Shown here piece by piece: positions 23,675 to 59,639 of a stretch of 64,000 nucleotides of DNA. The notes beneath the pieces were generated by a model. That model made no database searches, had not been told where the DNA came from, and worked only from the letters and a program-made list of their open reading frames with translations. Both the position numbers and the translations under genes were made by a program. Numbering within the stretch: the first letter of the stretch is position 1; every line of letters starts with the position of its first letter. Origin of the DNA: Tricharina praecox (lineage: Eukaryota); the NCBI RefSeq assembly GCF_024521635.1, contig NW_026250404.1, positions 124,001-188,000 on the forward strand. Direction: 5' to 3'.

Positions 23675-24849
23675 GTATAAACTTGATTATATTAAGGGGG
23701 TTGCTTATCAAATTTGGGCTGTACTCGAACGGATGGGAATGTAGGATGGAATGTTATGCAAGTTTTCTCGACGCAAAGCGGTACATGAAAAATCACTCAT
23801 TTAGCAGCCTTCTGAAGTGATGGAATTGAGAGAGGAACTTGACTTGATTGATGTATTGATACGAGGAAGAAGCGAAAGAAGACTGTTTATAAAGGAAAAC
23901 GAGCTCGTGTAGACGACGAGAAGGTCGGGCCTCAGACAGAGGATGCGACGAGAGTCGTCGCCGGACTGGGCTGGGGGCTTGAAGGCTTTCAGCTGACGAG
24001 GCTGATTACGATGAGAAGCCACAGACAAAGCCACGAAGGAAATGAGGGCAGCATGCAAAGAACAGTGGAAATTAGCATGACTCCGGAACAGGTAATAAGA
24101 CGCATAATATCAACATGAAGCTCGGATCTGGAACGTCCTAGAAGAAGCTTCTATATGAAGCCAACAGTCTCTTTCCGGCAGCTTTATTCGGACCCACTTT
24201 TAGGGCTCCCACACAGACTTTCGCTCGTATCTGCGACACAGGTGGCTATGGGAATATATATGAAAGCACTGGATGTCATTACATCCTGAAAATCATGTGC
24301 AGACATCGCCTTCGTACTCTTTCATCGGATCCTTTGCCTGGATAACATCAGCACGAATCCCAGACAAGATCGATAGAAAAGCGGATTGGTCATCTTGACC
24401 ACCAATGCGTAGCCCCTCGTCCGGCATGGCTTGTTAGATACCACACAATGATGCGCTGTTGGTGATAATCACGGGTGGTGATAGAGGTATGCCACTGTTA
24501 AAGGCCAGCGAAAGCAGAGGATCGTCGTGAAGTTTGACTACATCGCGGTGTCGTATCAAGCAAGTCAGCGCCGCTGGTAAAGGAGGATTGTACAGATCCG
24601 AGTTCATGTGGTCAAGTTCTTCGATACAGTCTAGTTATACGCTTGCGAAGGGATATCAGAGGCATAATTATGTAAGGTGGTCATCGTGGTGTAACAACTG
24701 CTACGCCACGAATCTTGGAAGTTGCACCGACATGCAGCTGCGGGGCAGCATTCGCTCAGCTCCACTTCGTAACAGGCAACCGCCAACAGCCTGGTAGACG
24801 CCATCTGTGCACACCGAATCTTTCCTGTCGACCAGAAGCCAATTCTCGG

Positions 24850-26581
24850 ATGGAACCCATTTCGCTCGTAACGGTAGTCCCGGGGCTATTGAAAATCTGT
24901 GCAGAGTTCATCGCGTTCATCTCCACCGCGGTCGATGCACCTAGCACTGCGCGTGACGTGGTCGCTGAAGTTCAGGCGATGCTCGGCATCTTCCGGCTGC
25001 TGAACAATTTCATAGTCCATTTCGACGAACAAAGCGTGGACCAGAAGTCTAGAATCCGTGCCGACGATCTGCTCTTCGTTTTGACGGACTGCGTATGCAC
25101 TTTCTCCAAACTCGACAAGGTGCTCGGAAGCCTCAAGACCGACGTTGACAATCCGAAGTCCACGTTCAGCGCCTGGGACCGGCTCAAGTGGGCGGCGAAA
25201 GACGGGGATATCGCGAAGATATTACAGCGCTTTCAAAGCCAAAAAACATCTCTGAATACTTTATTGTCGGTTCATACATGGTTAGTTTAGAGACCCCTTT
25301 CAGTGTACTTTGTACGGACGTCCAAAAGACGATCAACCCGCTGCCCTTCCTAACCGTGCTCCGGCGTGCCTATGAAATAGTTGCTGATAGCGTAGCTCGT
25401 CAGCTCTGCAAGCGCAGCGCGAGAGGGCGGAAATGAATGCTTCCAAAACGACATTTTTGCAGGAAAACCCGCATATCGCGAATCGCATGGCACCAGCCAC
25501 TTCCTTTGAGGATAACGCCGACGTATTCTCTGTCCGCTCCAGAACTGTGATTCACACCGCAGCATCCGGGGGAGCGGATACCTCGCCCGGAGATAATGAC
25601 GACGTATCCTCTGTTAGTTCTAAATCTTCAGCCCTCTCCACCAGATCTGAAAGATTCTCTCATAGATTCTCAATCGAGTTTGAGCGGTCTCTAGTTCAAA
25701 GTCGGGTCTACAGAAACGCGTCCAGAAACTCGTCAAACGGCTCGTTCATGAGCAATCAAACATCGGATTCAAGATGGTCTCATCTCACCGGACTGAGCAT
25801 GACCCAGATATCAACCATATCGGTCGTCTGTCTTCCAGTATACAGTTCCGAGCTGAGCAACGGCCATATGTACCAACAGGATCGGGTGATACCTGGTGGC
25901 AATGTCACGGGTGGCGGTCTCGCAGTAGCTCAACTTCAACGGCTGCGGATGGGAGGCGTCAGACCCACCACCACAATTCGGCATGGCTTGACGCCCGTGA
26001 GCGAACGGGGCGATCTTTTACATGTTGCGGCTGGCAAGGGTGACAACGTCGGTGTCGATATGCTGGTGAAAACGCTGGGTATTGATATAGAATCGCGAGA
26101 CACTAAAGGCTATACGGCGCTGCATCGCGCGGTCCTTGAGGGGAAGAGTGCTAACGTCCAACTACTACTCGACTGCGGTGCCAACATCGAGGCTGAGGAC
26201 GAAAAAGATAGCACTTCGCTTCACCAGGCCGCCAAAGGCGGACGTACAGAAATTGTGCAACTACTGCTCGACCGCGGTGCCAATATCGAGGCCACACAAA
26301 GGGACGGAACTTCGCTTCACTAGGCGGCCAGAGCCGGGCATATACACACTGTGCAGCTACTGCTCGACCGTGATGCCAACATCGAGGCCAAGGAAGTGGA
26401 CGGTGGGACCCCGCTGCACAAGGCGGCCGAAGGCGGACATACGGGCACCGCGCAGTTACTTCTTGACCGCCGTGCCAAAATCGATACTGCGGACACCGAG
26501 GGAAACACGGCACTCTTCCTGGCGGTCAGGTATTAGCATAAAGGCATGGCACGAATGCTCCGTAAATGAGGAGCCACATAG
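24850..26581 (+). pseudogene. HeLo-like/fungal STAND N-terminal domain + Ser-rich linker + about 6 ankyrin repeats; in-frame stops at 26321, 26534 and 26567; intron 25281-25395
   Basis: MEPISLVTVVPGLL..DAPSTARDV..WDRLKWAAKD..LQRFQSQKTSLN resembles HeLo-like N-terminal domains. Ankyrin consensus (LH.AA..G...VQLLLD.GANIEA) continues in frame across the TAG. Confidence 0.75.
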
Positions 26582-27494
26582 GTTGGTGAGTTTACTGCCA
26601 CCCCTTTCCGACTCTCATCGGATTCTAAACATCGTTCTCAACGGAAATAGAATTAGCAGAAGTATATCAATAGGGAAATCGGGATGGAAAGTTTGACTAT
26701 CAGGGAGGGTTGGAAGTAGGGAGATGGATAGGAGAAGATGTCGATTCTCATTATTATCACTCGTCAGACCGCAGAACTTCTTTATAACCACGCTCATCGG
26801 ATTCAAGGCTCGATATCTCTTCTTACGACAGACTGAACTCCTTTTCATTGACTGCTATCTCTATAGTTCTCTAATATATGGGTGGTGGGAATTATTGGCC
26901 AAGAGAAAAGGGGAAGTTGGCCGTGCCTGTTACGGTTCCGTGTCCGCCAGACCGTGCAATGCATAGAAACTCGACCGGAACTTTTTGGCATGGGACTGCG
27001 TGGGGTCGGAATTGTATTATGATATGTACAGATCGGCAAGTCATGACGGTTCTGCAGGGTCGCTACTTACCATGAGGTGTTTCGGTAGCTTCATAAGGTC
27101 GGATACAGTATGAGGAAACAAAAATAAAAGCCGAAATAAAAACAAAACACTTCATTGGCACCCTATCGACCTAGCACAACCTGTTATTTATGATAGCATC
27201 AAGGGTTCTCTCCTCATCGGACGTCGAATTACAAATGTCTAGTGTCTCTGAGACGTGATCGTTTACTGAATGTGTAAAATTGTGATAGGTCTCAGTAGAT
27301 AATGGTCAGGATGAGAAACCCAATATTATTATAAGTGCAATATTTGCGTACATACGAATAGAGAGAAAGTAAAACAAAGCCACAGAGGTTATCCGCTCGG
27401 AAACGAAGAAAAGAAATGAGGAAAATAGCAACACAAAATTGGCAGACTCCAAAAACGAACGAACAGTATGGAAATGCAATTGAAATTACCCAGC

Positions 27495-29161
27495 TTACTT
27501 CTCTTCAGGATTCTCGGCGACAGGAGTCTGAGTTGGAGTCTTGGTTTCTTCGTCCCTGGGAACAACAACGTCTTTCTTGTCTTTGAGGTGAAGGTCGCCA
27601 ACACTGGCTTCGAGCTCTTTGAACTTGGTTTCCTCAACAACCTCGTCCGGAACCGGCTTCTCGTTCTCCTGCTTGATTGGCTCCTCATCGATGAACTCTT
27701 CCTTCAGAGGTTCTTCATTTGAAGTCTCCTCCTTCGAGACTTCCTTGATAAGTTCTTCCTTAGGCGTCTCATCTTTTACCTTCTCCTTCGTGGGTGCCTC
27801 CTCTTTTGAATCCTCCTTGATTTCCTCCTTCCCCTCCTTCGCCTCCTCTTTGGTGGACTGTTCCTTCGCGGCATTCTCACCCTTCGCCAGCTCTTCATCT
27901 GGCACAACTATATCCTCCTTCTCCGGTCCCGCCACAGGAGCCTCGATCACGGCCTCGGCGGCGACCTCTTTCACTTCTGCTTCGGTCTCCGTTTCGACCT
28001 CTGTGGCCGGTTCTTCCCGCTTAGCTTCCTTCACCGGTTCCTGTACTTCCTTTTCCTCACCCTTCTCGACATCTGCATCCACGTCCGTCTTCTCCTGAAC
28101 AGGCTCCTCCTTCTCAACGACATCCGTCTTCTTCTCCTCGACTGGCTCCTCCTTCTCAACGACATCTATCTTCTCCTCCTTAACCGGCTCTTCCTTCTCA
28201 ACGACATCTGTCTTCTCCCCCTCAAATGGCTCCTCCTTCTCAACGACATCTGTCTTCTCCTCCTTAACAGGCTCCTTCTTCTCCTCGACTGGCTCCTCCT
28301 TCTCAACGACATCTGTCTTCTCCTCCTTAACAGGCTCCTTCTTCTCCTCGACTGGCTCCTCCTTCTCAACGAGATCTGTCTTCTTCCCCTCAACTGGCAC
28401 CTCCTTCTCAGCGGCCTCCGTCTTCTTCTTCTTCTCTTTGGCTGGTTCCTCAGCGACAGATGCAACTGACGGTTCAGCTGCAACCTTATTCTTTGAAGAT
28501 GAACTCTTCTTCTTCCCCTCAACCTTGCCCACAGCACTCTTAATACCGCTCGACTTCCTCTTCCCGGCAGCAGCAGCAGCGGCGGCGATCCCAGCCTGCG
28601 AGAACGCCGTCGGAACACCTCCTGCAGGGTGGCCTGATGGGGCGGCTCTCTCCCCGACGATATTCGGTTTCGCGGTGGTAGAAGGATCCCTGTGCGTCGT
28701 GGAACCGTCCATCACATTCATCTTCTTCTTCTTCTTTTTGAGCCCCAAGTTCTGGCGTAGCTCGCCATGCTCATTCCAGTCTTCAATATCGTCATGGTTC
28801 TATACAATGGAGATCATGTCAGCTCAGGGATGCTGCAGCTTTCGGTAACAAGGGATGGCTAGTAGGGGTGGAGCTATGGCTTACTTACCCCCAACACCTC
28901 CCCGTTCTTTGCAATTCCGGGTAATCGCTTGCCTTTGCCTTTCCATTGCCAAAGGCGGCGAGCTTTGTCGTCGGTAGCGAGGTCGACGGCTTTGAAGGGA
29001 ATCTTGTGAGATGTAAGGATGTGCTCGAGGCGAGAGGTAGCCGTGATGATGCCCGACGATCCGGAGGTCAACGAGGTGAGAAGGAAGATGGTGTCTGCCT
29101 CCTCACGCGAGAAGGCTTGCGGATCGAAGGTCTGGGGAGCTTCGCTCGGTGCGGTCGTCAT
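27495..29161 (-). CDS. SH3BGR/thioredoxin-like domain + long Glu/Lys-rich repetitive tail; intron about 28801-28888
   Basis: IFLLTSLTSG..ATSRLEHIL..IPFKAVDLATDDKARRLW..LPG..LG|NHDDIEDWNEHGEL, followed by low-complexity KTDVVEKEEPV repeats. Confidence 0.8.
28085..28400 (-). repeat. Coding minisatellite (39/60-nt modules encoding KTDVVEKEEPVEEK[KEPVKEE])
   Basis: Repeated GGCTCCTCCTTCTCAACGACATCTGTCTTC units. Confidence 0.85.
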
Positions 29162-40641: not shown

Positions 40642-41339
40642 CTCTCACGATGTCAAAAGATGTAAATTCTGGGAAATGAGGGGTAGAGGATGTTTCGTGC
40701 GAGTGAGGTGAGACAGCGTTGGGAGCCAAAAAGAGAATGCAGAAAAGCGGATGTTCGGACGAAGTAGAGGGCGAGACAGAGGACGAGACAGAGGGTGATT
40801 TTCAAAGGCAACTCAATGGGGGCGGCAAGAGTATCTAGACTTCCGGCGGGTGGAAGAAGAGGGGTTGTAGAAAGACGGAGAAGATATGAGGATGCCGGTA
40901 TTCTAGAACGTGCAGGCTGCAGCACCGTGTTTGGACGTTTGGGGCTCGCCGGTTGAAGCATCATATATCACGTCACTGCGCCGCATGCGCTATGGTTGGC
41001 CGTGTAAGGAGCAGTGTCGTCCATGGTGTTCTCTCTCTAGCAATGTCGTCCATAGAACAGCGGCGATAGGTGTGAATGTACGTTGTGACCGTCGAGGCCC
41101 ATCACTAAGACGTTCGCATCCTGCCACAACAATTCAGACTCTAGAGAACTCCTCCGAATCTTCGGTATTGTCCCGCAGCACATAACTGCCCCCTCAGCCT
41201 CCAGGTCTTGAGAATCCAGACACCTGTGTCCAGCACACCTTCCCATTCACATATCGTTAGCGCTTTCTTCCATGCGCACTGACGCGTGCATTCCTTGTGC
41301 TCGGCAGCGTGGCCCCCACGATGCGAACAGGGTCGCGGT

Positions 41340-41475
41340 GCTGGAGACATCACGTCGTTGGAGACATCACGCCGCTAGAGACATCACGCCGCTGGAGATA
41401 TCACCCTGCTGGAGACATCACCCTGCTGGAGACATCACCCTGCTGGAGACATCACCCTGCTGGAGACATCACCCA
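41340..41475. repeat. Minisatellite, 8 x 17 bp (GCTGGAGACATCACCCT), upstream of the helicase-AAA gene
   Basis: Eight contiguous units; left copies more diverged (CACGTC/CACGCC endings). Confidence 0.95.
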
Positions 41476-44400: not shown

Positions 44401-44940
44401 TGAAGATTAGAAACATTGTGGGATGATTCCTGACCTGAGTACCTAACCATCGTCCGATACACCGCAAGAAAGAAAACAAAACACCATTTTCGGGACTTCG
44501 AGTGCCTTTAGGAACCCAGGTGTATCAATAGAAACGACGTGCCGTACAAAAGAAAGTCATTCCCTACCCATGACAGAAGGAAGAAAACGTATGCGACAGA
44601 AACTGATCGATTACGTACATGCAAAAGAGCGACAAAAGAGCGACAAAACACCAAGATTCCCTTCCACCATTTGAGAATAGCGCAAGTAGGAAATCATTAG
44701 GCCTAGGAAAACATATCACCATCACACACCTCGCCCTTGCACAAACATAAGGAACCAACATCGGCATCTGTGATCCATGCCCCATGGATGTGAATAAGTC
44801 ATTTTGCATAATATCTCCCACTCGAACTTGCGGACTGCGCTTAAGAGAATGAAATGAATGAATTTACGATAACTGTGGCAAGATTTTGTAGTAATATTAG
44901 CACAAATGGTAAAGACGGCGGTTAGAGGGTTACCCGCACC

Positions 44941-47900
44941 TTATGTGGTAGCGCCTGCTGTACATAGCCGTTCCACTATCTCAAGATGGCCTCCCTTCGA
45001 TGCTGCTTGTAGCGCTGTTCTTCCAAGAAATTCAGCTGGCTCTGCGTTGACATTGGCCCCCTTCTCCAAAAGTCGATTCACCAGCTCAAGATGGCCTCCC
45101 TCCGATGCTGCTTGTAGCGCTGTTCTTCCATCGCCACGTGCTGGCTCTGCGTTGACATTGGCCCCCTTCTCCAAAAGTCGATTCACCAGCTCAAGATGGC
45201 CTCCCTCCGATGCTGCTTGTAGCGCTGTTCTTCCATGAAATTCAGCTGGCTCTGCGTTGACATTGGCCCCGTTCTCCAAAAGTCGATTCACCAGCTCAAG
45301 ATGGCCTCCCTCCGATGCTGCTTGTAGCGCTGTTCTTCCATTCCTCCATGTTGGCTCTGCGTTGACATTGGCCCCGTTCTCCAAAAGTCGATTCACTATC
45401 TCAAGATGGCCTCCCTCCGATGCTGCTTGTAGCGCTGTTCTTCCATTGCCCCATGTTGGCTCTGCGTTGACATTGGCCCCCTTCTCCAAAAGTCGATTCA
45501 CCAGCTCAAGATGGCCTCCCTCCGATGCTGCTTGTAGCGCTGTTCTTCCATCCGATTCAGCTGGCTCTGCGTTGACATTGGCCCCCTTCTCCCAAAGTCG
45601 ATTCACCAGCTCAAGATGGCCTCCCTCCGATGCTGCTTGTAGCGCTGTTCTTCCATCGCTACGTGCTGGCTCTGCGTTGACATTGGCCCCCTTCTCCAAA
45701 AGTCGATTCACCAGCTCAAGATGGCCTCCCTCCGATGCTGCTTGTAGCGCTGTTCTTCCATCCGATTCAGCTGGCTCTGCGTTGACATTGGCCCCCTTCT
45801 CCAAAAGTCGATTCACCAGCTCAAGATGGCCTCCCTCCGATGCTGCTTGTAGCGCTGTTCTTCCATCCCACACAGCTGGCTCTGCGTTGACATTGGCCCC
45901 GTTCTCCAAAAGTCGATTCACCAGCTCAAGATGGCCTCCCTCCGATGCTGCTTGTAGCGCTGTTCTTCCATCCCACACAGCTGGCTCTGCGTTGACATTG
46001 GCCCCGTTCTCCAAAAGTCGATTCACCAGCTCAAGATGGCCTCCCTCCGATGCTGCTTGTAGCGCTGTTCTTCCATCGCGACGTGCTGGCTCTGCGTTGA
46101 CATTGGCCCCCTTCTCCAACAGAATTTCCACGATATCCGTTTTGCCGGACGCCGCTGCGAATTGCAATCCCGTCCGCCCCGACCCGTTATCGCAGTTGAC
46201 GTCAACAATTCCATAATCTAGCAGGTGGCGGACGTTTACAGCATCTCTTGAAAGGATTGCATCATAGAAGGCATTTATGTACCTCGCGTCCACGGCCGAG
46301 GGAGAGATTTGGTTTTCTTCATCAAGAATTTTCGCCTTGTTGCTGGAAACTAGTAGTCGTAGTCGTTTCAGGACGTTCAGCATGGCTTCAAGTAAACCCT
46401 TCGCCAAATCTTTCCCTGGTTGCCGAAGGTACTTCAGCAAAACCACCGCCATCATAACGGCAGCAAACACTGGCACTGCAATGTAGAAATAGGTCGTCCA
46501 GCGAGGGTTGTCCTTAAGCGCGTCCACATTCATTCCGTACAAACTCTAATAGGTACTTAGTAAGCAACTCTCAAAGTTTCGAAACGCAAGGTATCTTACC
46601 GCGACGAATAGTAACGGTAGAAAGATAAACTAAGAGGATTTGTGGTCAGTTACTACTAGACTAGGGATTGTTACGGTGGAGGAATGTACCGTGATCCAAG
46701 AAAGCCTCTTGACGCTGTAATTCTGCTCTCGGGCCTTGCATGCCTCGTCGATGGAGACGATATTGGATGCCTAAGCATAGGACTGTTAGATTTCACACTG
46801 GAAAAGAGAAATTTCCACTAGGATACCCTTTGAAGCAAGACATCGATTCTTCTAATCAACCCTTCTTCTAAGGTTTTGCCGACACCTGCAAGCCGCTGCT
46901 TTGCTTTTACTAGATCGGTGCTGACCTCGTTGTCTCGCTTGGGTACCTTGCCCTCTTGACTCGAGCGCTTCCGTGGAACTCTTGATGTCGCCCACCCCGG
47001 ATGTGAGGTCATCCGTACAGCCCTATAGTAACTTCCGTAGGGATATCTAGGGCGGGGGCGTTGGTTGGAATGAGGCGGCTTGTCCTGACTCTTCAGGTCG
47101 GCGTCGTCATTTTCTTCCTCGTCCTCACTCCCCAGGCGTTGATTCCACTTCACATCACTGATCTGATGCAAGGCCTCAATGCTCTGAATTTGTTCGCGCT
47201 GCGCAGCTTCCAGTCGGGAGGCTACGTCGGCGACGGAGACCAAGGACCGTATGAATTGTCGGTAATTCAATTCCTGATCACCCATTATTTTCCTGCTCTA
47301 AAAACTATGAGTCTCATACTCTGGTATCATAGGATTGAGAAAACATACTGCGTCAGACAATAATTGCTTATAGCAGTTGATCAGCTTCTCCCAATCTCCA
47401 CACACATCGTTTAAGCAAGAAGCTAGAATTGATGCAGGTGTGGTGTTAGGTATAGATTGATTGTCGGTATTCTTCCAGAGGTGGTTGAAGTAATACTTTC
47501 GGCCGGATTTGTCGGTCAGGAAGAAGAAGGCGAGGCGCTTCCGGCGGACAAACGTGTGGCTTCTCATCGTCAGCTTCTCGTGTTAGGGTTATTGATCACA
47601 AACGCACATCGCAGTATCAGTATACAGCGTTACCGTCTCATCCGTGGACGCGATCTGCGCCGTTTCGACGTCCTCAAGTACTTGTGGCCTCTCTCGGATG
47701 CCCACCTCTTCGTAAGTTGGAATTTGCACCCAGAAACCGCGTGCTGTTCAGTCAGTGATGTCCACAAACAAACACTCCAAGCCGCAGTCATTTATCACGT
47801 ACCGCAACGGGGTTTGAGATCGCCTGGGCATCTTTTGCAGCCACATTTTTCGGCATTCCCGATACATTCATTACAATCACATGAGGAGCTCTTGAGGTAA

Positions 47901-48315
47901 CCCGAACAATCTTTGCATTCACATGAAGAGCCTTGGCACGTCGCCTTTAATCCGGAAGAATCGCCTGTTTCGGGGACATTCACTAAGCCTGGAGCCAGAG
48001 GTGCGCGGGACGAGCTGCACAACCCGGCGTATCGGGAATACAGAAGGGCTAACAGTTTTGCCGAGAGCTCCTGGGTGAAGCTATCTTGAATGAGAATGTG
48101 GATACACACTTGACACTAGTCGAGGAGATACAAACTTGAAGAGAACTGGTTTATCTTTCTAAATGGGTATTAGCAATGGCGGCTGGGGCGACAGCCACTC
48201 GATCTCCACCTACCGTCGTGTCGACCTTATGTAGCGCATCTCGTAGATCTGCTTCGGTACAGATCTTATCGAAATCATCTCCTAGCCACACCTCCATGAC
48301 AACCGGATTGGACAT
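44941..48315 (-). CDS. CorA-like membrane protein (2 TM, GMN motif) fused to a C-terminal array of highly conserved ankyrin repeats; 9 exons, about 975 aa
   Basis: Approximate exons 48315-48214, 48158-48136, 48080-47803, 47743-47634, 47576-47349, 47297-46827, 46770-46690, 46629-46600, 46545-44941 splice in frame. SVKRLSWIT|FIFLPLLFVA|SLYGMNV..FYIAVPVFAAVMMAVVLL is the CorA C-terminal signature. The two 5' exons are less certain. Confidence 0.85.
44975..46120 (-). repeat. Coding tandem array of 105-bp ankyrin units (11 variable windows)
   Basis: About 93 nt nearly invariant + 12 nt variable per unit; variable windows start at 45025 and recur every 105 nt to 46075. Confidence 0.97.
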
Positions 48316-48419: not shown

Positions 48420-48491
48420 TTCGTAGGGTACGTGAGATCCGACGGGCGGGCAAGATTCGTAAGGTACGTGAGATCCGACGGGCGTGCGAAA
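48420..48491. repeat. 2 x 36-bp tandem duplication upstream of the CorA-ankyrin start codon
   Basis: TTCGTA(G/A)GGTACGTGAGATCCGACGGGCG... occurs twice in tandem. Confidence 0.85.
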
Positions 48492-49824
48492 TTCGTGGTG
48501 AAGTTACGCTGTGACGAGAAGATGGGAAAGTCGGGCAAAGCGGAGATACTCCAGCCGCCACACAGATTATGTGCTTCTTGGCTTTGCCAGTTGTCGGATG
48601 GTGATTGGGATTGGAGTCCCCGCTGAAGTGAGACATACGTGCTGCAGGCCGGTTGGGAACTGGCGTTTGCCTGATGGTGGAGCAACAGCCGCGGTCATCG
48701 TGGCATTGCGAGTAGATACAGAACTCTGAAGGGACGTTTATTTGCTTCCGGCATGTGAGATGTTGATAGAGTAAGTACTTGTTCGAAGGATGTTGGGAGA
48801 AGAGAGGTGACTTTACGTCGTAGAGCGTCCTCGTTCCTGAAGGGCCCATACGCAGCCCTGCATGCGTATGGTTTGGGACACTTTGAGCCGACACTAACTA
48901 AGGGCCTGTTCGGTCGCCAGCTGCATTTTCAAACCTTGGGTTTTCTGACGAGTTGACGCTTACTAAAGCTGAAGCTGCAAATTCTCGTCTCCCCCAATGT
49001 CCCATTTGGCAACCCAGATATTTAACAGCACGCCACACTGTTTATTTGTATTGTGGCTCAGTCGAAAATATGCAGTTTTTCAAATTGTTAACTTGGGGTG
49101 GTGTGCCGAACGCTCACCCATCGCCCGGAAACTGAGGGTTTCAAACTGCATCTAAAGTTTATGTGGTAAATTTGAAATGCAGCTGTGTTTATCATTTGAG
49201 AGCGTAAACTGAAAATATGGGCCCGTCGACACAAGTTGTGATGGTGAATGCCGAACGACAAGGGCGCGACAATATACCGAGAGAAGGGACCAAGACCCAA
49301 ATCCAGCCTCGGTGGGTGCAGAATAGGAAAGTACTATACTAGGCGAGTATTTTGCATTCTTCAAACTTATTGTACCTATATGTAATCCAACCGCAACGTT
49401 CACCAGCTCTCGGAAACTACACTTCACCACGAGGCCTCAGCTAATGGAAAATATTTATTTTTCTTTTCTCAGTCCTCGCGAAGGCGGAATGGGTACTTCA
49501 GATAATGGTGCACTTCGGGTAGTCGGGCTTCACGGATCGCCTCCCGCAACACCTCCAAGCTTCGGCCTCGAAATGTGAAGCGGTATTCAATGTCAAATAT
49601 GTGCCACCCGGGGGTTTCCAGTCTTGCCTGAACGACGCCGTGAGACTTAGCCGCGAAGGTCGGGATCGTTCGGCACGGCAATATTTCACGGATCATGTGA
49701 TTTCAAAAGTGGCCCCCAATTCTGGCCGCACTAGCACTACACACATACAAAAAGTCATATGGAGATGCCCGACTGGAAAGTCACTTCAAAGCACAATTAA
49801 TTCCTGATTTCCAACGCTCAACCT

Positions 49825-54736: not shown

Positions 54737-56109
54737 ATGTCGCCGCGCGATCCCATCGTCGAAGCGGGCTCTCCGGCAAAGGGCGAGAACGAAGTGGCAC
54801 CTTCGCCGGCGGGGGTGAGGAGGCACAGAACCCGTCAACAAACAGCCTCTATGTTTGTTCTCGCGACCCTATTTCTGGACGACGGTCCACCGCCCCCGCC
54901 TGCGAGGTGATCCAAGAGACACTTGGAGACGGCTGCCGCGAAACCCATCCCACCAAAGAAGCGGATGAAGGCTACCGGAAGCTCCGATGTGACTACCTCT
55001 AAGGTGCAGCGGCAATCGAAGAGCACAGCGGCACCGGTTAAGACCGAAACTCCAGCTGCAAAGACCCTGACTCGGGTTAACAACACTGCTCCGAAAGAAG
55101 TCGCTACTCGTCCTCGTTCGGCACGAGTCATCAAGGCCGCTGCATCGCATCTCAAGGCTGAAAGTGCTGCTTCGGGAGTAGCCACAGTCCGATCTCGTTC
55201 GGGACGGCCCATCAAGGTGCCCACTTCGTTGCAGCCCCAGGCTGACACTGTCGCTTCGGGGGTAGCCGATGCTCGTCCTCGTTCGGGACGGAACATCGAT
55301 ACCAGCTCAACCCGGAAAGCGCCTCGCGGGCAGCATGTCAAGGCCGTCCCGAGGAAGCCAGTGGCCTTACCAGAGCCAGAGATCGAATGCGCGATCTGTT
55401 TGGAGTCCATGCGGCCGGCGAACTTTCCGGCGAAGCTGACTTCCACCTGCAACCACTCGCCCACTAGTTGCGGCGACTGCGTGCGCAACCTCCTTACCGA
55501 GGCTTTCGCCGGCAAGGAATGGGTTCTCCCAGCGTGTCCGGATTGCTCTGCCGAGTTCACGTCCAGCGAAATTCGGCTCCTCGGCACCGCCGAACAGGCG
55601 GAGACATTCGAGTGGCGGTTGACGAGCCAGTTTCTGCGAACACTGGAGGAGTACCGCAGCTGCCTCGATCCCGAGTGCGACGCGGGGCAGATCCACGCGG
55701 GCGGCGACGACACGCCCATCGTCACCTGCGACGCCTGCGGGTTCCAGCAGTGCTACTCGCACAACATGCCGTGGCATGCGGACCTGACGTGCGCGCAGTA
55801 CGATGAGCGCGAGCACCACCAGCGGCTCGAGGAGAACAAAGCCTCCGAAGAACTGGTGAAGCAAACTGCGCAGCGCTGCCCCGGTTGCAGCATCACCGTC
55901 ACGAAGATCGATGGCTGCGATCATATGACGTGCCAACGATGCAAGACCGGCTTCTGCTACCTGTGCGTGGCGTTGTACGCCGGGAAAAACGGGTATATCA
56001 CGTGGGAAACGGTGCCCACAAAGAATCGTGTCCGTACTACGCCCGGTACGACCCTCACGCCCGATATGACCCTCACACCGGGCACGATCGCACCCACGAC
56101 CGCAACTAG
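54737..56109 (+). pseudogene. RBR (RING-IBR-RING) E3 ligase paralogue with an in-frame TGA at 54908 and a -1 frameshift near 55990
   Basis: CAIC..CNH..CGDC..CPDC RING1, IBR, CPGC..DGCDHMTC RING2. The homologous tail VYHVGNGAHKESCPYY lies in the -1 frame. A protein could still start at ATG 54965. Confidence 0.7.
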
Positions 56110-56554
56110 TAACAGCGCCACGGTCATATAACGCTCTCGTATGCGTATATAAACCTGGGGCAGGAGGCGTACTCGGGGGACGACGTTCGAAGACAGCTGC
56201 GTGCTGAGACATATGGGATGGATGGTGGCTAGAAGGAGGAATTGCGGGCGGGCTTCAAATAAGCTTTAGTCCAGTATCTCGGTGTTAACTATCATTAGCT
56301 GTGAGACAATTGCGTTTATTTCCATACATATCGTTTGTTTCTTGTATGTACCCGGTCGTGGCGGCCGGCAGTTCCTTATTACTTCATTCATCTTGTTTAC
56401 GATATCTCCTAGGCTAGTTATTTTCACCTTGCATACTCTGCTCTACTCTAGGCCACTTATTGTTATCTCACCTGCTTCATTAATTCCCACACGCCGCGAC
56501 GATACCAGTCGCGGATAAGAACCTTCAAGTTGGATAAGAGTCAAGACCACATTC

Positions 56555-57262: not shown

Positions 57263-58511
57263 TTATTTTCAGTGTTCGGTGGTGGATGAGGTGAGAATGG
57301 GGATGAGGATGAGGGTGAGGATGAAGATGGGGAGAAAGATGAGAAGGAGGTATGAGGAAGGAAGGAAGGGTATCGTGATTAACGGGCTCCTGGAGAGTTT
57401 GCTATTCCCATAGTAGCTTCGACGACTCGAAAGTAAAATCGATAGAGTTCGGGCCAGGCTATTGGTTTGGCTTCGGCCCGTCGTAGGTTGATTACACAAA
57501 ACGATATTGATGGTCTCGGCGTGGCGAGACCCACAGTGAGAGTTCGGGTTTCTTTTTTGGCTTCCTTTTTTTTCTGTTTCAGTTTTACGTTTGTTGGTTC
57601 ATCTATTACTGTCATCGTCCATCGCGATTCGCGAGCCCACGGCCCGAGTATGTAAGCAACTATTGCGAGTGACATCGATGATGGTGAGGATCCACGGTGC
57701 ATGCACCGATGATCATCTTGATATTGATGTTGGTATTATGTATCAGCTAGCCGGTTCGACGCAGCCAAGGAACGAGCTGGATGCAGCTGCAGCTCGCCAT
57801 AGATAGGATCGCCGATGCGGAAGGGAAAGTCCAACCAACCCCACGCGGAGCTTTCCGGTTCGAATACGGGTATCGTAGGTAGGGAGTTGTGTGCGGAATA
57901 GCGTACCTAGAGGCTGCCGGAATCTCCGTATCGCAAAGCTGGATTTCCATCCGGGGGGTTGTCTCGTTGGAGGATGTTCGTTGAAGTGCGGGGTACCGAC
58001 TAGCAGAAGCTTATCCGTATCGTAGGTAACTAAGGACCAACGGCAGTAGTGGGTGCGCACTCGTAGGTTAGCGTCGAGCACCCGTTTGCGCACTTTCCAC
58101 GCCACGCCAGGCCCACAATCTCGCCTACATACGGTGGTTGTGGATGTAAGTTCAGCCGTTGGTAGAGAAACAGCCAACACAGCACACACACATACACACC
58201 AACCACAGCCTTGACGCATCCAGCCGATGGGGCCGCCACCGCCATTGGACGGATGCTTTTGTTTGTGCAGAAAGGAAAAGCCCCAACTCTACTCGATGAA
58301 TCCCGCAAGTGGCTGGTCGATTACTGAGGGGTGTGTGGATGTGTGTGGGTTGCACTGTGCCCCCGCTCTTGCTGGAGCTTCCCCTCCGCCTGTGTTTATT
58401 ATGACCATACCAGCTCTCTGCGCTCGCGCAATCCTTCCTGTCCGCGGATCTCGCACATACCGCTCGCTCTTCTCCGACTCCGGATCCCACCACACGGCGC
58501 CGAGCTGAAAC

Positions 58512-59639
58512 ATGTACGCTGCTACTAATCCCAACGGATTCTGGGAGCACCTGTTTCCCGGGGCTGCCGGTGTCCCTCACACTTTCCCGCGCGATGTCCC
58601 TCACTGGCCGCCGGCGCCGGGCCCACCCGCTGCCAAAGCGTTCCCGGAAACGTTCACACCGCGCTACTCGCACCGCTCCATCTCTCCCAAGCTATGCGTC
58701 GGCTGCGGCGACTTCGCACCCATCTACTTCCACGAGACGCCCGGTCTCTCAATCCTCGCACGGCGCGTGCACCAGCGCTGCTATATCTGCCTGACGTGCA
58801 TCCAGTCACGGATCTCTGGCACAGTATCCGGCACATGGGTGCGCTGCCCCGGCTCCCTCTGCAGCCGCGAGCTCAGCAACGCCGACATCCGCATCCTCTT
58901 CCGCGCGAACGAGCACGGCGAGAGCCGCGACATGCCACTACCCTCACCCGGCACACTCTTCCCGGCCACACACGCGCCCGTCAAGTGCTGCACCTGCCTC
59001 GAGACCGACCCATCAGGCGGCTTCGCCCCCCGGCTAACCGACAACTGCCGACACCACCCCACACTCTGCTTTGGGTGTCTGCGGGCGATGCTCTCGCACG
59101 CGCTCGACGGGAAGGCATGGGTTGATCCCGCGTGCCCGGACTGTCGACAGCCGCTCTCGGCCGCAGACGTAAAGCGCTTCGGCACCGCGACGCAGATGAA
59201 AACGTTTGCGGACCGCGCGGCGCGCCGCTTCCTGCAGGATAATCCCGACTGGCTGATGTGTCCCAACGGCTGGTGCGGGCAGCTGCAGAAACATGAGGGC
59301 GGAGCCGCTCGCCCCTGGCTGCAGTGTCTCGCTTGCGGATCGTTCATGTGCTTCAACCATCGCGACGAGCCGTATCATGCCGGACTGTCGTGCGCGGAGG
59401 TGGATGATGCGAGGAATAGGGTCATGCAGGAGGGCATACAAATGAGCGAGGAACTGGTCCGCAGCATCTCAAAGGTTTGCCCGAACTGCCAGTTCGATAT
59501 CCATAAAACTGGCGGATGCGAACATATGACCTGCGGAAAGTGTAAGTACGAGTTCTGCTTCCTGTGTCTGGCGTCGTACGAAAAGATTAGAGCCATTGGG
59601 AACACGGCGCATGTGAGGTCCTGTGCGCATTATGCATGA
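58512..59639 (+). CDS. RBR E3 ubiquitin ligase with an extra N-terminal RING-like module (intact, single exon)
   Basis: RING1 CCTC..CRH..CFGC..CPDC, IBR CPNGWC..CLAC..CFNH..H..C, RING2 CPNC..GGCEHMTC..C..FCFLC. Confidence 0.9.
   Translation: MYAATNPNGFWEHLFPGAAGVPHTFPRDVPHWPPAPGPPAAKAFPETFTPRYSHRSISPKLCVGCGDFAPIYFHETPGLSILARRVHQRCYICLTCIQSRISGTVSGTWVRCPGSLCSRELSNADIRILFRANEHGESRDMPLPSPGTLFPATHAPVKCCTCLETDPSGGFAPRLTDNCRHHPTLCFGCLRAMLSHALDGKAWVDPACPDCRQPLSAADVKRFGTATQMKTFADRAARRFLQDNPDWLMCPNGWCGQLQKHEGGAARPWLQCLACGSFMCFNHRDEPYHAGLSCAEVDDARNRVMQEGIQMSEELVRSISKVCPNCQFDIHKTGGCEHMTCGKCKYEFCFLCLASYEKIRAIGNTAHVRSCAHYA

Follow-up and report, generated by a model that had tools for sequence, protein, structure and literature searches.

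In Tricharina praecox, a tandem array of nearly identical ankyrin repeats was found at the 3' end of a gene for a CorA-like membrane protein. The gene lies in a stretch of 64,000 nt (contig NW_026250404.1, positions 124,001 to 188,000 of the forward strand, NCBI RefSeq assembly GCF_024521635.1), hereafter referred to as the window, within which all positions are numbered. The array is probably an ankyrin domain of high internal conservation (HIC) borne by a protein that is not a NOD-like receptor (NLR; NOD, nucleotide-binding oligomerization domain), in which a homogenised repeat framework is combined with finger-tip diversity kept by selection and which would thereby serve as a re-specifiable binding module. 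Homogenised repeats with hypervariable contacts are the best-documented route by which fungal intracellular receptors diversify and have been analysed almost only in NLRs. At this locus the same evolutionary pattern is seen on a channel-type membrane protein in whose four largest frames no NOD domain was found. What is new is that an HIC ankyrin array sits on a CorA-like membrane protein that is apparently expressed, within a set of combinations of CorA-like, ankyrin and NACHT domains for which no description was found.

A single array was returned by Tandem Repeats Finder (TRF) with a period of 105 nt, 10.9 copies, 93% matches and a score of 1928 (Table 1). In translation it gives twelve 35-aa units in the register GRTALQAASEGGHLELVNRLLEKGANVNAEPxxxx, ten of which are nearly identical outside the last four codons. 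A preliminary description, made from the letters of the stretch, had listed eleven tetrapeptides encoded by 12-nt segments at exact 105-nt spacing. All eleven were recovered on the minus strand in the same N to C order, and the sorting of these segments, called patches below, into codon families was correct on recheck. Among the ten homogenised units 10 of the 12 nt columns of the patch vary as compared to 4 of the 93 framework columns (Fisher P = 2e-9), and mean pairwise nucleotide identity is 52.6% in the patch and 98.8% in the framework. Over 350 aa the ten units share a mean pairwise amino acid identity of 89.7%, and their similarity to the consensus is 0.93. The changes inside the framework are those named earlier, namely a K/N site (K in six units, N in four), one L>I (CTG>ATA) and one L>W. 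The description of the 93 nt as nearly invariant holds for 10 of the 11 units but not for unit 1, which is only partly consensus-like (52% over its first 63 nt). No second copy of the 105-nt unit was present in the 64-kb window, where only chance matches of 10-12 nt were obtained.

The history of the framework was evaluated by comparison with an ortholog on a metagenome contig, L001, that is colinear with the gene over 3.1 kb at 78% nucleotide identity and has the same exons. The L001 array has a 105-nt period and at least 7 units and is less homogenised (TRF 85% matches, framework identity 92.0%). Its TRF start at 2874 lies about 44 nt ahead of the first full unit (GRTA at residue 162 of the frame from 2432), which is near the same register. 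Framework identity is 98.8% within the window array versus 92.3% between the window and L001 arrays. The sole fixed difference in the 93 nt is synonymous and found at codon 4, which is GCG in 10/10 window units and GCC in 7/7 L001 units. An array-wide fixed difference of this type is a signature of concerted evolution, which the preliminary description had postulated and which these two arrays bear out. The unit shuffling that it had also postulated, or exchange within units, is supported by the array as well. All four combinations of nt 69 (G/C) with nt 94 (G/A) are present among the 11 units, meaning that framework and patch have recombined or that these sites mutated recurrently. In addition, the AESD patch occurs in two non-adjacent units that differ at one nt (L>W), and not one of the 105 nt differs between the two adjacent AVWD units.

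The proportion of synonymous sites that differ (pS) is 0.58 inside the patch as compared to 0.005 at sites 3-90 nt away, a contrast of roughly 100-fold. As duplication or conversion of whole units would erase the patches too, something preserves or regenerates patch diversity. Diversifying selection on the patches is inferred indirectly, from this contrast in synonymous divergence alone; for HIC repeats in general, the explanation in print is that such selection is superimposed on homogenisation.

The position of the patches on the repeat was determined from family, fold and alignment. Ankyrin repeats were recognised by Pfam above cut-off, with E = 1.1e-132 for Ank_2 (PF12796) and E = 9.8e-94 for Ank (PF00023), the latter over 12 stretches. 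An AlphaFold2 model based on a 57-sequence alignment had a predicted local distance difference test score (pLDDT) of 94.0, a predicted template modelling score (pTM) of 0.88 and a solenoid of 13 helix pairs, while a single-sequence model, at a pLDDT of 41.7, was discarded. The best Foldseek match to the model was a 12-repeat designed ankyrin repeat protein (DARPin) at E = 3e-26, and the top matches were DARPins and ankyrin-R/B at a probability of 1.00. Alignment of each unit to solved 33-aa repeats of ankyrins and DARPins leaves a gap of two residues in the hairpin, in agreement with the earlier statement that the 35-aa unit exceeds the canonical 33 by 2 aa. The four variable residues align to the turn before G-x-T, as expected from their proposed location on the beta-hairpin finger, and the AlphaFold2 model agrees. 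In this model the beta-bridge from one finger to the next is made by the third variable residue. The alignment also pairs the K/N site with the N/Y position that precedes GADVNA in a solved DARPin.

The gene that carries the array was modelled over its whole length as a protein of 979 aa. All seven coding introns are GT..AG and measure 51-98 nt; the four downstream ones are backed by contig joints of two public runs, X1 and X3, and the three upstream ones are prediction only. Residues 46-738 of the model align colinearly at 38% identity (E = 2e-121) with P0074, a 670-aa Arachnomyces protein with CorA plus ankyrin domains, and the gaps in a tblastn alignment of this protein coincide exactly with the predicted introns. 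The last-exon open reading frame (ORF; 44941-46545, minus strand, 534 aa) is open across all 12 units. It begins with SLYGMNV followed by a hydrophobic stretch, which is the signature end of CorA-type channels. YGMN is found at residue 449, and Kyte-Doolittle hydropathy exceeds 1.6 in windows that begin at 430-437, before this motif, and in others that begin at 461-468, after it. Homologs that align across the CorA region match PF01544 (P0074 at E = 3.5e-17 and P0121 at E = 2.4e-17; range for P0074, P0121, P0127 and P0130, 1e-13 to 1e-17). No NACHT or NB-ARC NOD domain was detected by Pfam in the four largest frames of the gene, which hold all or most of exons 2, 4, 5 and 8 (exons 1, 3, 6 and 7 were outside the scan). 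In CorA proteins both termini are cytosolic. By this topology the array, being C-terminal of the second membrane helix, would be cytosolic as well. When the 157-aa cytosolic exon was searched exhaustively with phmmer, only 5 relatives were obtained, all of them fragments of 80-161 aa that were uninformative. The N-terminal cytosolic part also contains three C-x-C-x2-C groups, amounting to nine cysteines, that are kept in L001:827-1198 and are weaker in P0074 and P0121; this stretch may bind metal.

Splicing of the gene and the make-up of the array were checked against contigs of four public runs mapped to the region, one of which is possibly the source sample. Contigs of X1 and X3, neither of which is recorded as RNA, have joints that lack introns 46546-46599, 46630-46689 and 46771-46826, the intron from 47298 and the intron 44873-44939 in the 3' untranslated region (3'UTR). 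In the DNA run X2, intron 46546-46599 is read through and no joint was found at any of the five intron sites. The spliced joints of X1 and X3 suggest that transcription and splicing of the gene take place. Junctions of patch and flank were matched without difference for ARGD in X2, X3 and X6 and for AEFH and ARSD in X1, and as these matches are exact in contigs of independent runs, the unit types are real. All four runs break the array into pieces of 62-135 nt, so that the order and number of units are those of the window assembly alone. An X3 contig carries T>A at 45345 in patch 8, turning AGG into TGG (R>W), a variant that may come from a paralog. A total of 131 X1 contigs fall on the region, 67 of them 90-99% alike, and in one X1 contig and one X2 contig the loose end starts a related unit with a framework unlike that of the window. 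These are hints of paralogous arrays in the same organism.

Relatives of the array and of its carrier were then compared. In the array homolog search 7,999 candidates were scored, of which 610 had E <= 0.001, and the best matches were fungal ankyrin proteins at 51-67% identity. PF22939, which we take to be the winged-helix domain of NACHT-type fungal NLRs, is present in 14 of the 20 best-scoring homologs. The spacing of the G-x-T-[AP]-L motif was measurable in 67 of 121 proteins examined, and 35 aa was the commonest spacing in 40 of these 67 (145 of 275 spacings). The NLR-type protein P0003 has 35-aa units of 92% identity with variation restricted to the last 3-5 positions. Accordingly, a 35-aa unit with a variable tip is a common subtype and not peculiar to the CorA-like/ankyrin gene.

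The CorA part of P0074, used as a query, matched 44 proteins, of which 17 had CorA and ankyrin, 25 CorA only and 2 ankyrin only, and a search with the linker region for longer homologs gave one match, P0121. Three domain orders were observed. CorA precedes ankyrin in P0074, P0121, P0127 and P0130 by Pfam scan and in P0128, P0129 and P0131 from sequence reading, and this order occurs in several Pezizomycetes. Ankyrin precedes CorA in P0159 (Aspergillus) by Pfam scan and in P0148, P0149, P0150, P0157 and P0162 (the last two also Aspergillus) from sequence reading, and does so as well in Morchella and Letharia. In three Colletotrichum proteins (P0153, P0155 and P0156) NACHT, ankyrin and CorA follow one another by Pfam scan. 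The membrane motif RLSWITFIFLPL...GMN is common to all sequences read, with RITWITFIFLPL / RLSWITLIFLPL variants in two. As the same motif ends both NACHT-ankyrin and ankyrin-only proteins, the module recurs with ankyrin in three domain orders. Both P0128 and P0129 contain stretches of nearly identical units whose differences lie at the tip that varies in the window array. One unit of P0128 (Pyronema) is fused out of register (…GAVVNAEPAAAGSGHGDIVNRLL…), as if unequal exchange had removed part of a repeat and left a visible trace of recombination in a CorA-ankyrin array. The metagenomic protein P0008 (491 aa) shares the linker and array of the family and has an N-terminus without the CorA part, which would reflect a swap of domains or else an incomplete gene call on its 3-kb contig.

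The repeat pattern was then placed among published ones. HIC repeats of the ankyrin, WD40 and TPR types with hypervariable positions on the binding surface are known in fungal NLRs (Dyrka 2014, PMC4986451), where 10% of NLR ankyrin domains are highly conserved and repeat length is polymorphic; in Dikarya NLR-like proteins account for 60-70% of such repeats (PMC4986451). A 2026 study of Podospora in Genome Biology and Evolution (PMC13449251) describes repeat exchange between genes, HIC ankyrin units of 33-36 aa and many HIC proteins without an ATPase domain, and its abstract reports introgression and balancing selection at HIC NLRs. The novelty initially implied for the repeat pattern could thus not be upheld, the HIC phenomenon and ankyrin units of 34-36 aa having been published already (PMC4986451, PMC13449251). 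Set against the HIC thresholds of at least 85% identity over at least 100 aa (PMC4986451) and Psim of at least 0.7 (PMC13449251), the identity and consensus similarity of the ten units given above are higher on both counts; variation is also concentrated on the predicted binding surface, and concerted evolution is evident. No description of a CorA-ankyrin fusion was found in the literature, supplementary tables being outside the scope. On a term search, none of CorA, PF01544, magnesium, transmembrane and ion channel occurred in a survey of NLR effectors (PMC9815663). Matches to "CorA" in the text of PMC4986451 proved to be the word "coral" and were rejected.

The closest known counterparts are the HIC ankyrin domains of NACHT NLRs in Podospora (Pa_3_8560, Pa_7_10370 and Pa_2_8180), which likewise have near-identical tandem units, variable hairpin or loop positions, concerted evolution and repeat exchange (PMC4986451, PMC13449251). 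It is NLR arrays of this type that the window units resemble most. The window array differs from them in that no NACHT or NB-ARC domain was detected in the four largest frames, in that it follows a CorA-like membrane module, and in that its variation is found only at four contiguous hairpin residues and one K/N site, with none in helix 1. The WD40 repeats of the HNWD proteins HET-E, HET-D as well as HET-R (Paoletti 2007 and Chevanne 2010, cited in PMC4986451) also have four hypervariable positions per near-identical repeat. They are shuffled within and between genes, and rapid re-specification of their recognition surface has been proposed (PMC4986451). In contrast to the window array they form a beta-propeller and not an ankyrin solenoid, belong to an NLR architecture and have a proven role in allorecognition (PMC4986451). 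Compared to the Mg2+ channels CorA, Alr1 and Mrs2 (PF01544), the protein has the same GMN ending of the first of two C-terminal membrane helices and a long cytosolic N-terminal domain, but it differs in the ankyrin array (about 490 aa with linker) after the second helix and in its fast-diverging cytosolic domain. NOMPC and TRPA1 (structural matches 5vkq and 7ykr) also tether a cytosolic ankyrin solenoid to an oligomeric cation channel; their pore family is unrelated and their arrays are neither homogenised nor hypervariable. DARPins have a constant consensus framework with few varied positions, and the patch residues lie at the turn that differs between DARPin modules. The DARPin positions that match the patch and the K/N site are, we assume, the designed randomised positions. 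In the window array, which is natural, the hairpin is 2 aa longer and the helix-1 positions are invariant.

In the mechanism that we propose, intragenic unequal crossing-over or short-tract gene conversion would keep the framework of about 93 nt nearly identical across ten units, while the four codons at each beta-hairpin finger tip would stay diverse and be reshuffled relative to the framework; the unit comparisons above show this much. Selection would then maintain the diversity of the tips, which are predicted to form the ligand-contact ridge of the 13-repeat solenoid. By analogy with what has been proposed for the sensor domains of fungal NLRs, the array could act as a rapidly re-specifiable binding module. 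At its most speculative, the mechanism would have ligand binding by the array regulate, localise or gate the CorA-like pore. If the ridge does control the pore, the protein would be a compact sensor-effector and some fungal "CorA transporter expansions" would have to be reinterpreted; otherwise the locus remains a clear natural case of an ankyrin framework whose variable patch has four residues. A wider version of this mechanism, which we regard as unlikely, holds that the CorA-like module is a pore-type output repeatedly coupled to ankyrin sensors. The protein would then be a NOD-free "sensor-channel" in one polypeptide for non-self recognition or allorecognition, with ligand altering ion flux or triggering cell death, and the unusually low pS of the array between species would reflect trans-species sharing or introgression of cassettes.

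Several results weigh against an HIC recognition domain on a CorA-like protein. No excess of non-synonymous change was seen in the patch by the method of Nei and Gojobori (NG86), in which the proportion of differing non-synonymous sites (pN) was 0.45 and pS 0.58 (pN/pS 0.77), both being saturated. Similarly, a minimum-spanning network of the nine distinct patches had 17.5 non-synonymous and 3.5 synonymous steps where 22% synonymous are expected (P = 0.28). A single allele was available for these analyses of selection, and HIC loci are typically marked by polymorphism in repeat number. In the flanking exons pS between the window gene and L001 is 0.358 (86.8 differences at 242.8 synonymous sites). 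The consensus frameworks differ from one another at 1 of 24.5 synonymous sites (pS 0.041) and 4 of 68.5 non-synonymous sites. Synonymous divergence of the framework (44941-46545 versus L001:2432-3664) is thus about nine-fold below that of the flanking exons (Fisher P = 0.001), which is unfavourable because a slowing of neutral divergence from one species to another is not predicted by concerted evolution by itself. Recent sharing of arrays, by introgression or a shared unit pool, or constraint on the DNA itself are possible causes. The positions in helix 1 and after the G that are contacts in DARPins are invariant, and the variable surface is for that reason narrower than in the Podospora ankyrin case. 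Pfam CorA (PF01544) was not matched by any single exon of the gene, because introns split the domain, and the assignment to CorA is based on motifs and homologs. Finally, a recognition role is backed by no ligand, phenotype or neighbouring NLR or HET gene.

Some of these results would also suit an ordinary transporter of Mg2+ or another metal, in which the ankyrin tail is a scaffold or regulatory element, its repeats were recently amplified in tandem, and its loops are under relaxed constraint with no part in recognition. The protein has kept the GMN motif and the membrane hairpin of CorA type, its gene has mostly housekeeping neighbours, and no excess in the ratio of non-synonymous to synonymous change (dN/dS) is seen in the patch. 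CorA-family expansions in filamentous fungi are moreover usually interpreted as transporters (PMC3897900, PMC10694956). Recent amplification would however have copied the 12-nt patches as well, and neutral mutation cannot yield a pS of 0.58 in the patch next to 0.005 in the adjacent 93 nt. Near-identical units with variation at the same position occur as well in the CorA-ankyrin proteins P0128 and P0129, and L001 shares both the hypervariable position and the period, which means that the arrangement is old and no recent accident. A plain transporter is on these grounds improbable.

Saturation of both synonymous and non-synonymous divergence in the patch is also what targeted hypermutation of the 12 nt, operating in place of selection, could leave behind. 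Closely related patches nevertheless stand one step apart and form recurring families, as under ordinary mutation and shuffling. The 64-kb window contains no repeat of the unit or template-like copy elsewhere, no reverse-transcriptase or mutator domain was found among the 41 ORFs scanned, and the indices of repeat-induced point mutation (RIP) in the array are not RIP-like, all of which makes such a localised process very unlikely. RIP had itself been considered as the source of the variation and was rejected, the network having 9 transitions versus 12 transversions in addition to those indices. A mis-assembly of the array, or of unit number and order within it, has to be weighed in view of the broken contigs, since all four runs interrupt it and order and number are supported only by the window. 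Against this stand the exact junctions of patch and flank in contigs of several runs from different studies, the independent metagenomic array of L001 with the same period and register, and the frame that stays open through all 12 units, and we consider an artefact extremely unlikely.

TAL effectors (TALEs) read DNA at one base per repeat. The preliminary description had likened the patches to such a code. On this view each tetrapeptide would read one monomer of DNA, RNA or an extended peptide, and a target would be spelt by the order of the units. The resemblance is formal only and consists of repeats about 34-35 aa long with nearly the same DNA and a short hypervariable patch. It is also true that long ankyrin solenoids bind extended peptides along their groove and that AnkB/AnkR complexes are among the top structural matches. 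By Pfam and by fold the repeats are however ankyrin and so of another fold and family than TAL, no TAL family is among the 13 families listed for the ORF, and no sign of a correspondence of one unit to one monomer was seen. The protein is membrane-anchored, with no nuclear or DNA-binding feature seen, and to our knowledge ankyrin fingers have no periodic target. The comparison is accordingly unsupported, a linear code being exceedingly improbable.

Table 1. Positions of the CorA-like/ankyrin gene, its parts and the units and 12-nt patches of its array in the window.
Feature	Position	Strand	Basis or remark
CorA-like/ankyrin gene, coding sequence	44941..48315	-	8 exons, 979 aa, 0 internal stops; stop codon 44941-44943
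Predicted exon 2, cysteine-rich motif (C-x-C-x2-C...C-x-C-x2-C...C-x-C-x2-C)	47803..48115	-	ORF translation and spliced model
Exon of 157 codons, cytosolic CorA-like part, fast-evolving	46827..47297	-	contig joints; phmmer
Two small exons, 46690-46770 and 46600-46629 (...KRLSWIT / FIFLPLLFVA, first hydrophobic segment)	46600..46770	-	joints in X1, X3; P0074 alignment gaps
Intron between the two small exons	46630-46689	-	contig joints
GMN motif (46528-46536), short loop and second hydrophobic segment (about 46426-46500)	46426..46536	-	translation
Homogenised 105-nt tandem array, 10.9 copies	44980..46119	-	TRF; borders inside unit 1 (nt 64 on) and last unit
Unit 1 (GRTGLQFAAASGKTDIVEILLEKGANVNAEPARRD), 5' 63 nt not homogenised	46075..46179	-	consensus identity 52% over nt 1-63, 100% over nt 64-93
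Patch 1, ARRD (GCA CGT CGC GAT)	46075..46086	-	translation
Patch 2, AVWD	45970..45981	-	translation
Patch 3, AVWD; unit equal to unit 2 over all 105 nt	45865..45876	-	translation and comparison
Patch 4, AESD	45760..45771	-	translation
Patch 5, ARSD	45655..45666	-	translation; exact 66-nt X1 contig across patch
Patch 6, AESD; unit has L>W change	45550..45561	-	translation
Patch 7, TWGN	45445..45456	-	translation
Patch 8, TWRN; unit has L>I change	45340..45351	-	translation
Patch 9, AEFH	45235..45246	-	translation; exact 62-nt X1 contig across patch
Patch 10, ARGD	45130..45141	-	translation; exact X2, X3, X6 contigs across patch
Patch 11, AEFL	45025..45036	-	translation
Terminal shortened unit acting as C-cap (GRTALQAASKGGHLEIVERLCTAGATT)	44944..45024	-	consensus identity 94% over first 48 nt, then 42%
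3'UTR intron, 67 nt, GT..AG, begins 1 nt past stop codon	44873..44939	-	joint in X1, X3 contigs

The neighbours of the CorA-like/ankyrin gene are mostly housekeeping genes, and a scan of 41 ORFs gave no NACHT or HET domain. Another gene with ankyrin repeats, unrelated to the first, lies at 24676-26700 on the plus strand and has ordinary repeats that are not homogenised. An in-frame stop falls inside one of these repeats (…DGTSLH*AARAGH…) near 26321, so that the gene may have become a pseudogene or may contain an intron that was missed. At 54911-56128 and 58509-59636 on the plus strand lie two paralogous neighbours with IBR domains (RBR-type E3 ligase). At 27498-28799 on the minus strand a Lys/Glu-rich ORF of 434 aa contains a degenerate tandem peptide repeat (…KEEPVEEKKEPVKEEKTDVVEKE…) and has no Pfam match. 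Short tandem repeats were also observed at 41339-41474 (17-nt unit, 8 copies) and at 48420-48496 (36-nt unit, 2.1 copies), the latter just upstream of the start codon of the CorA-like/ankyrin gene.

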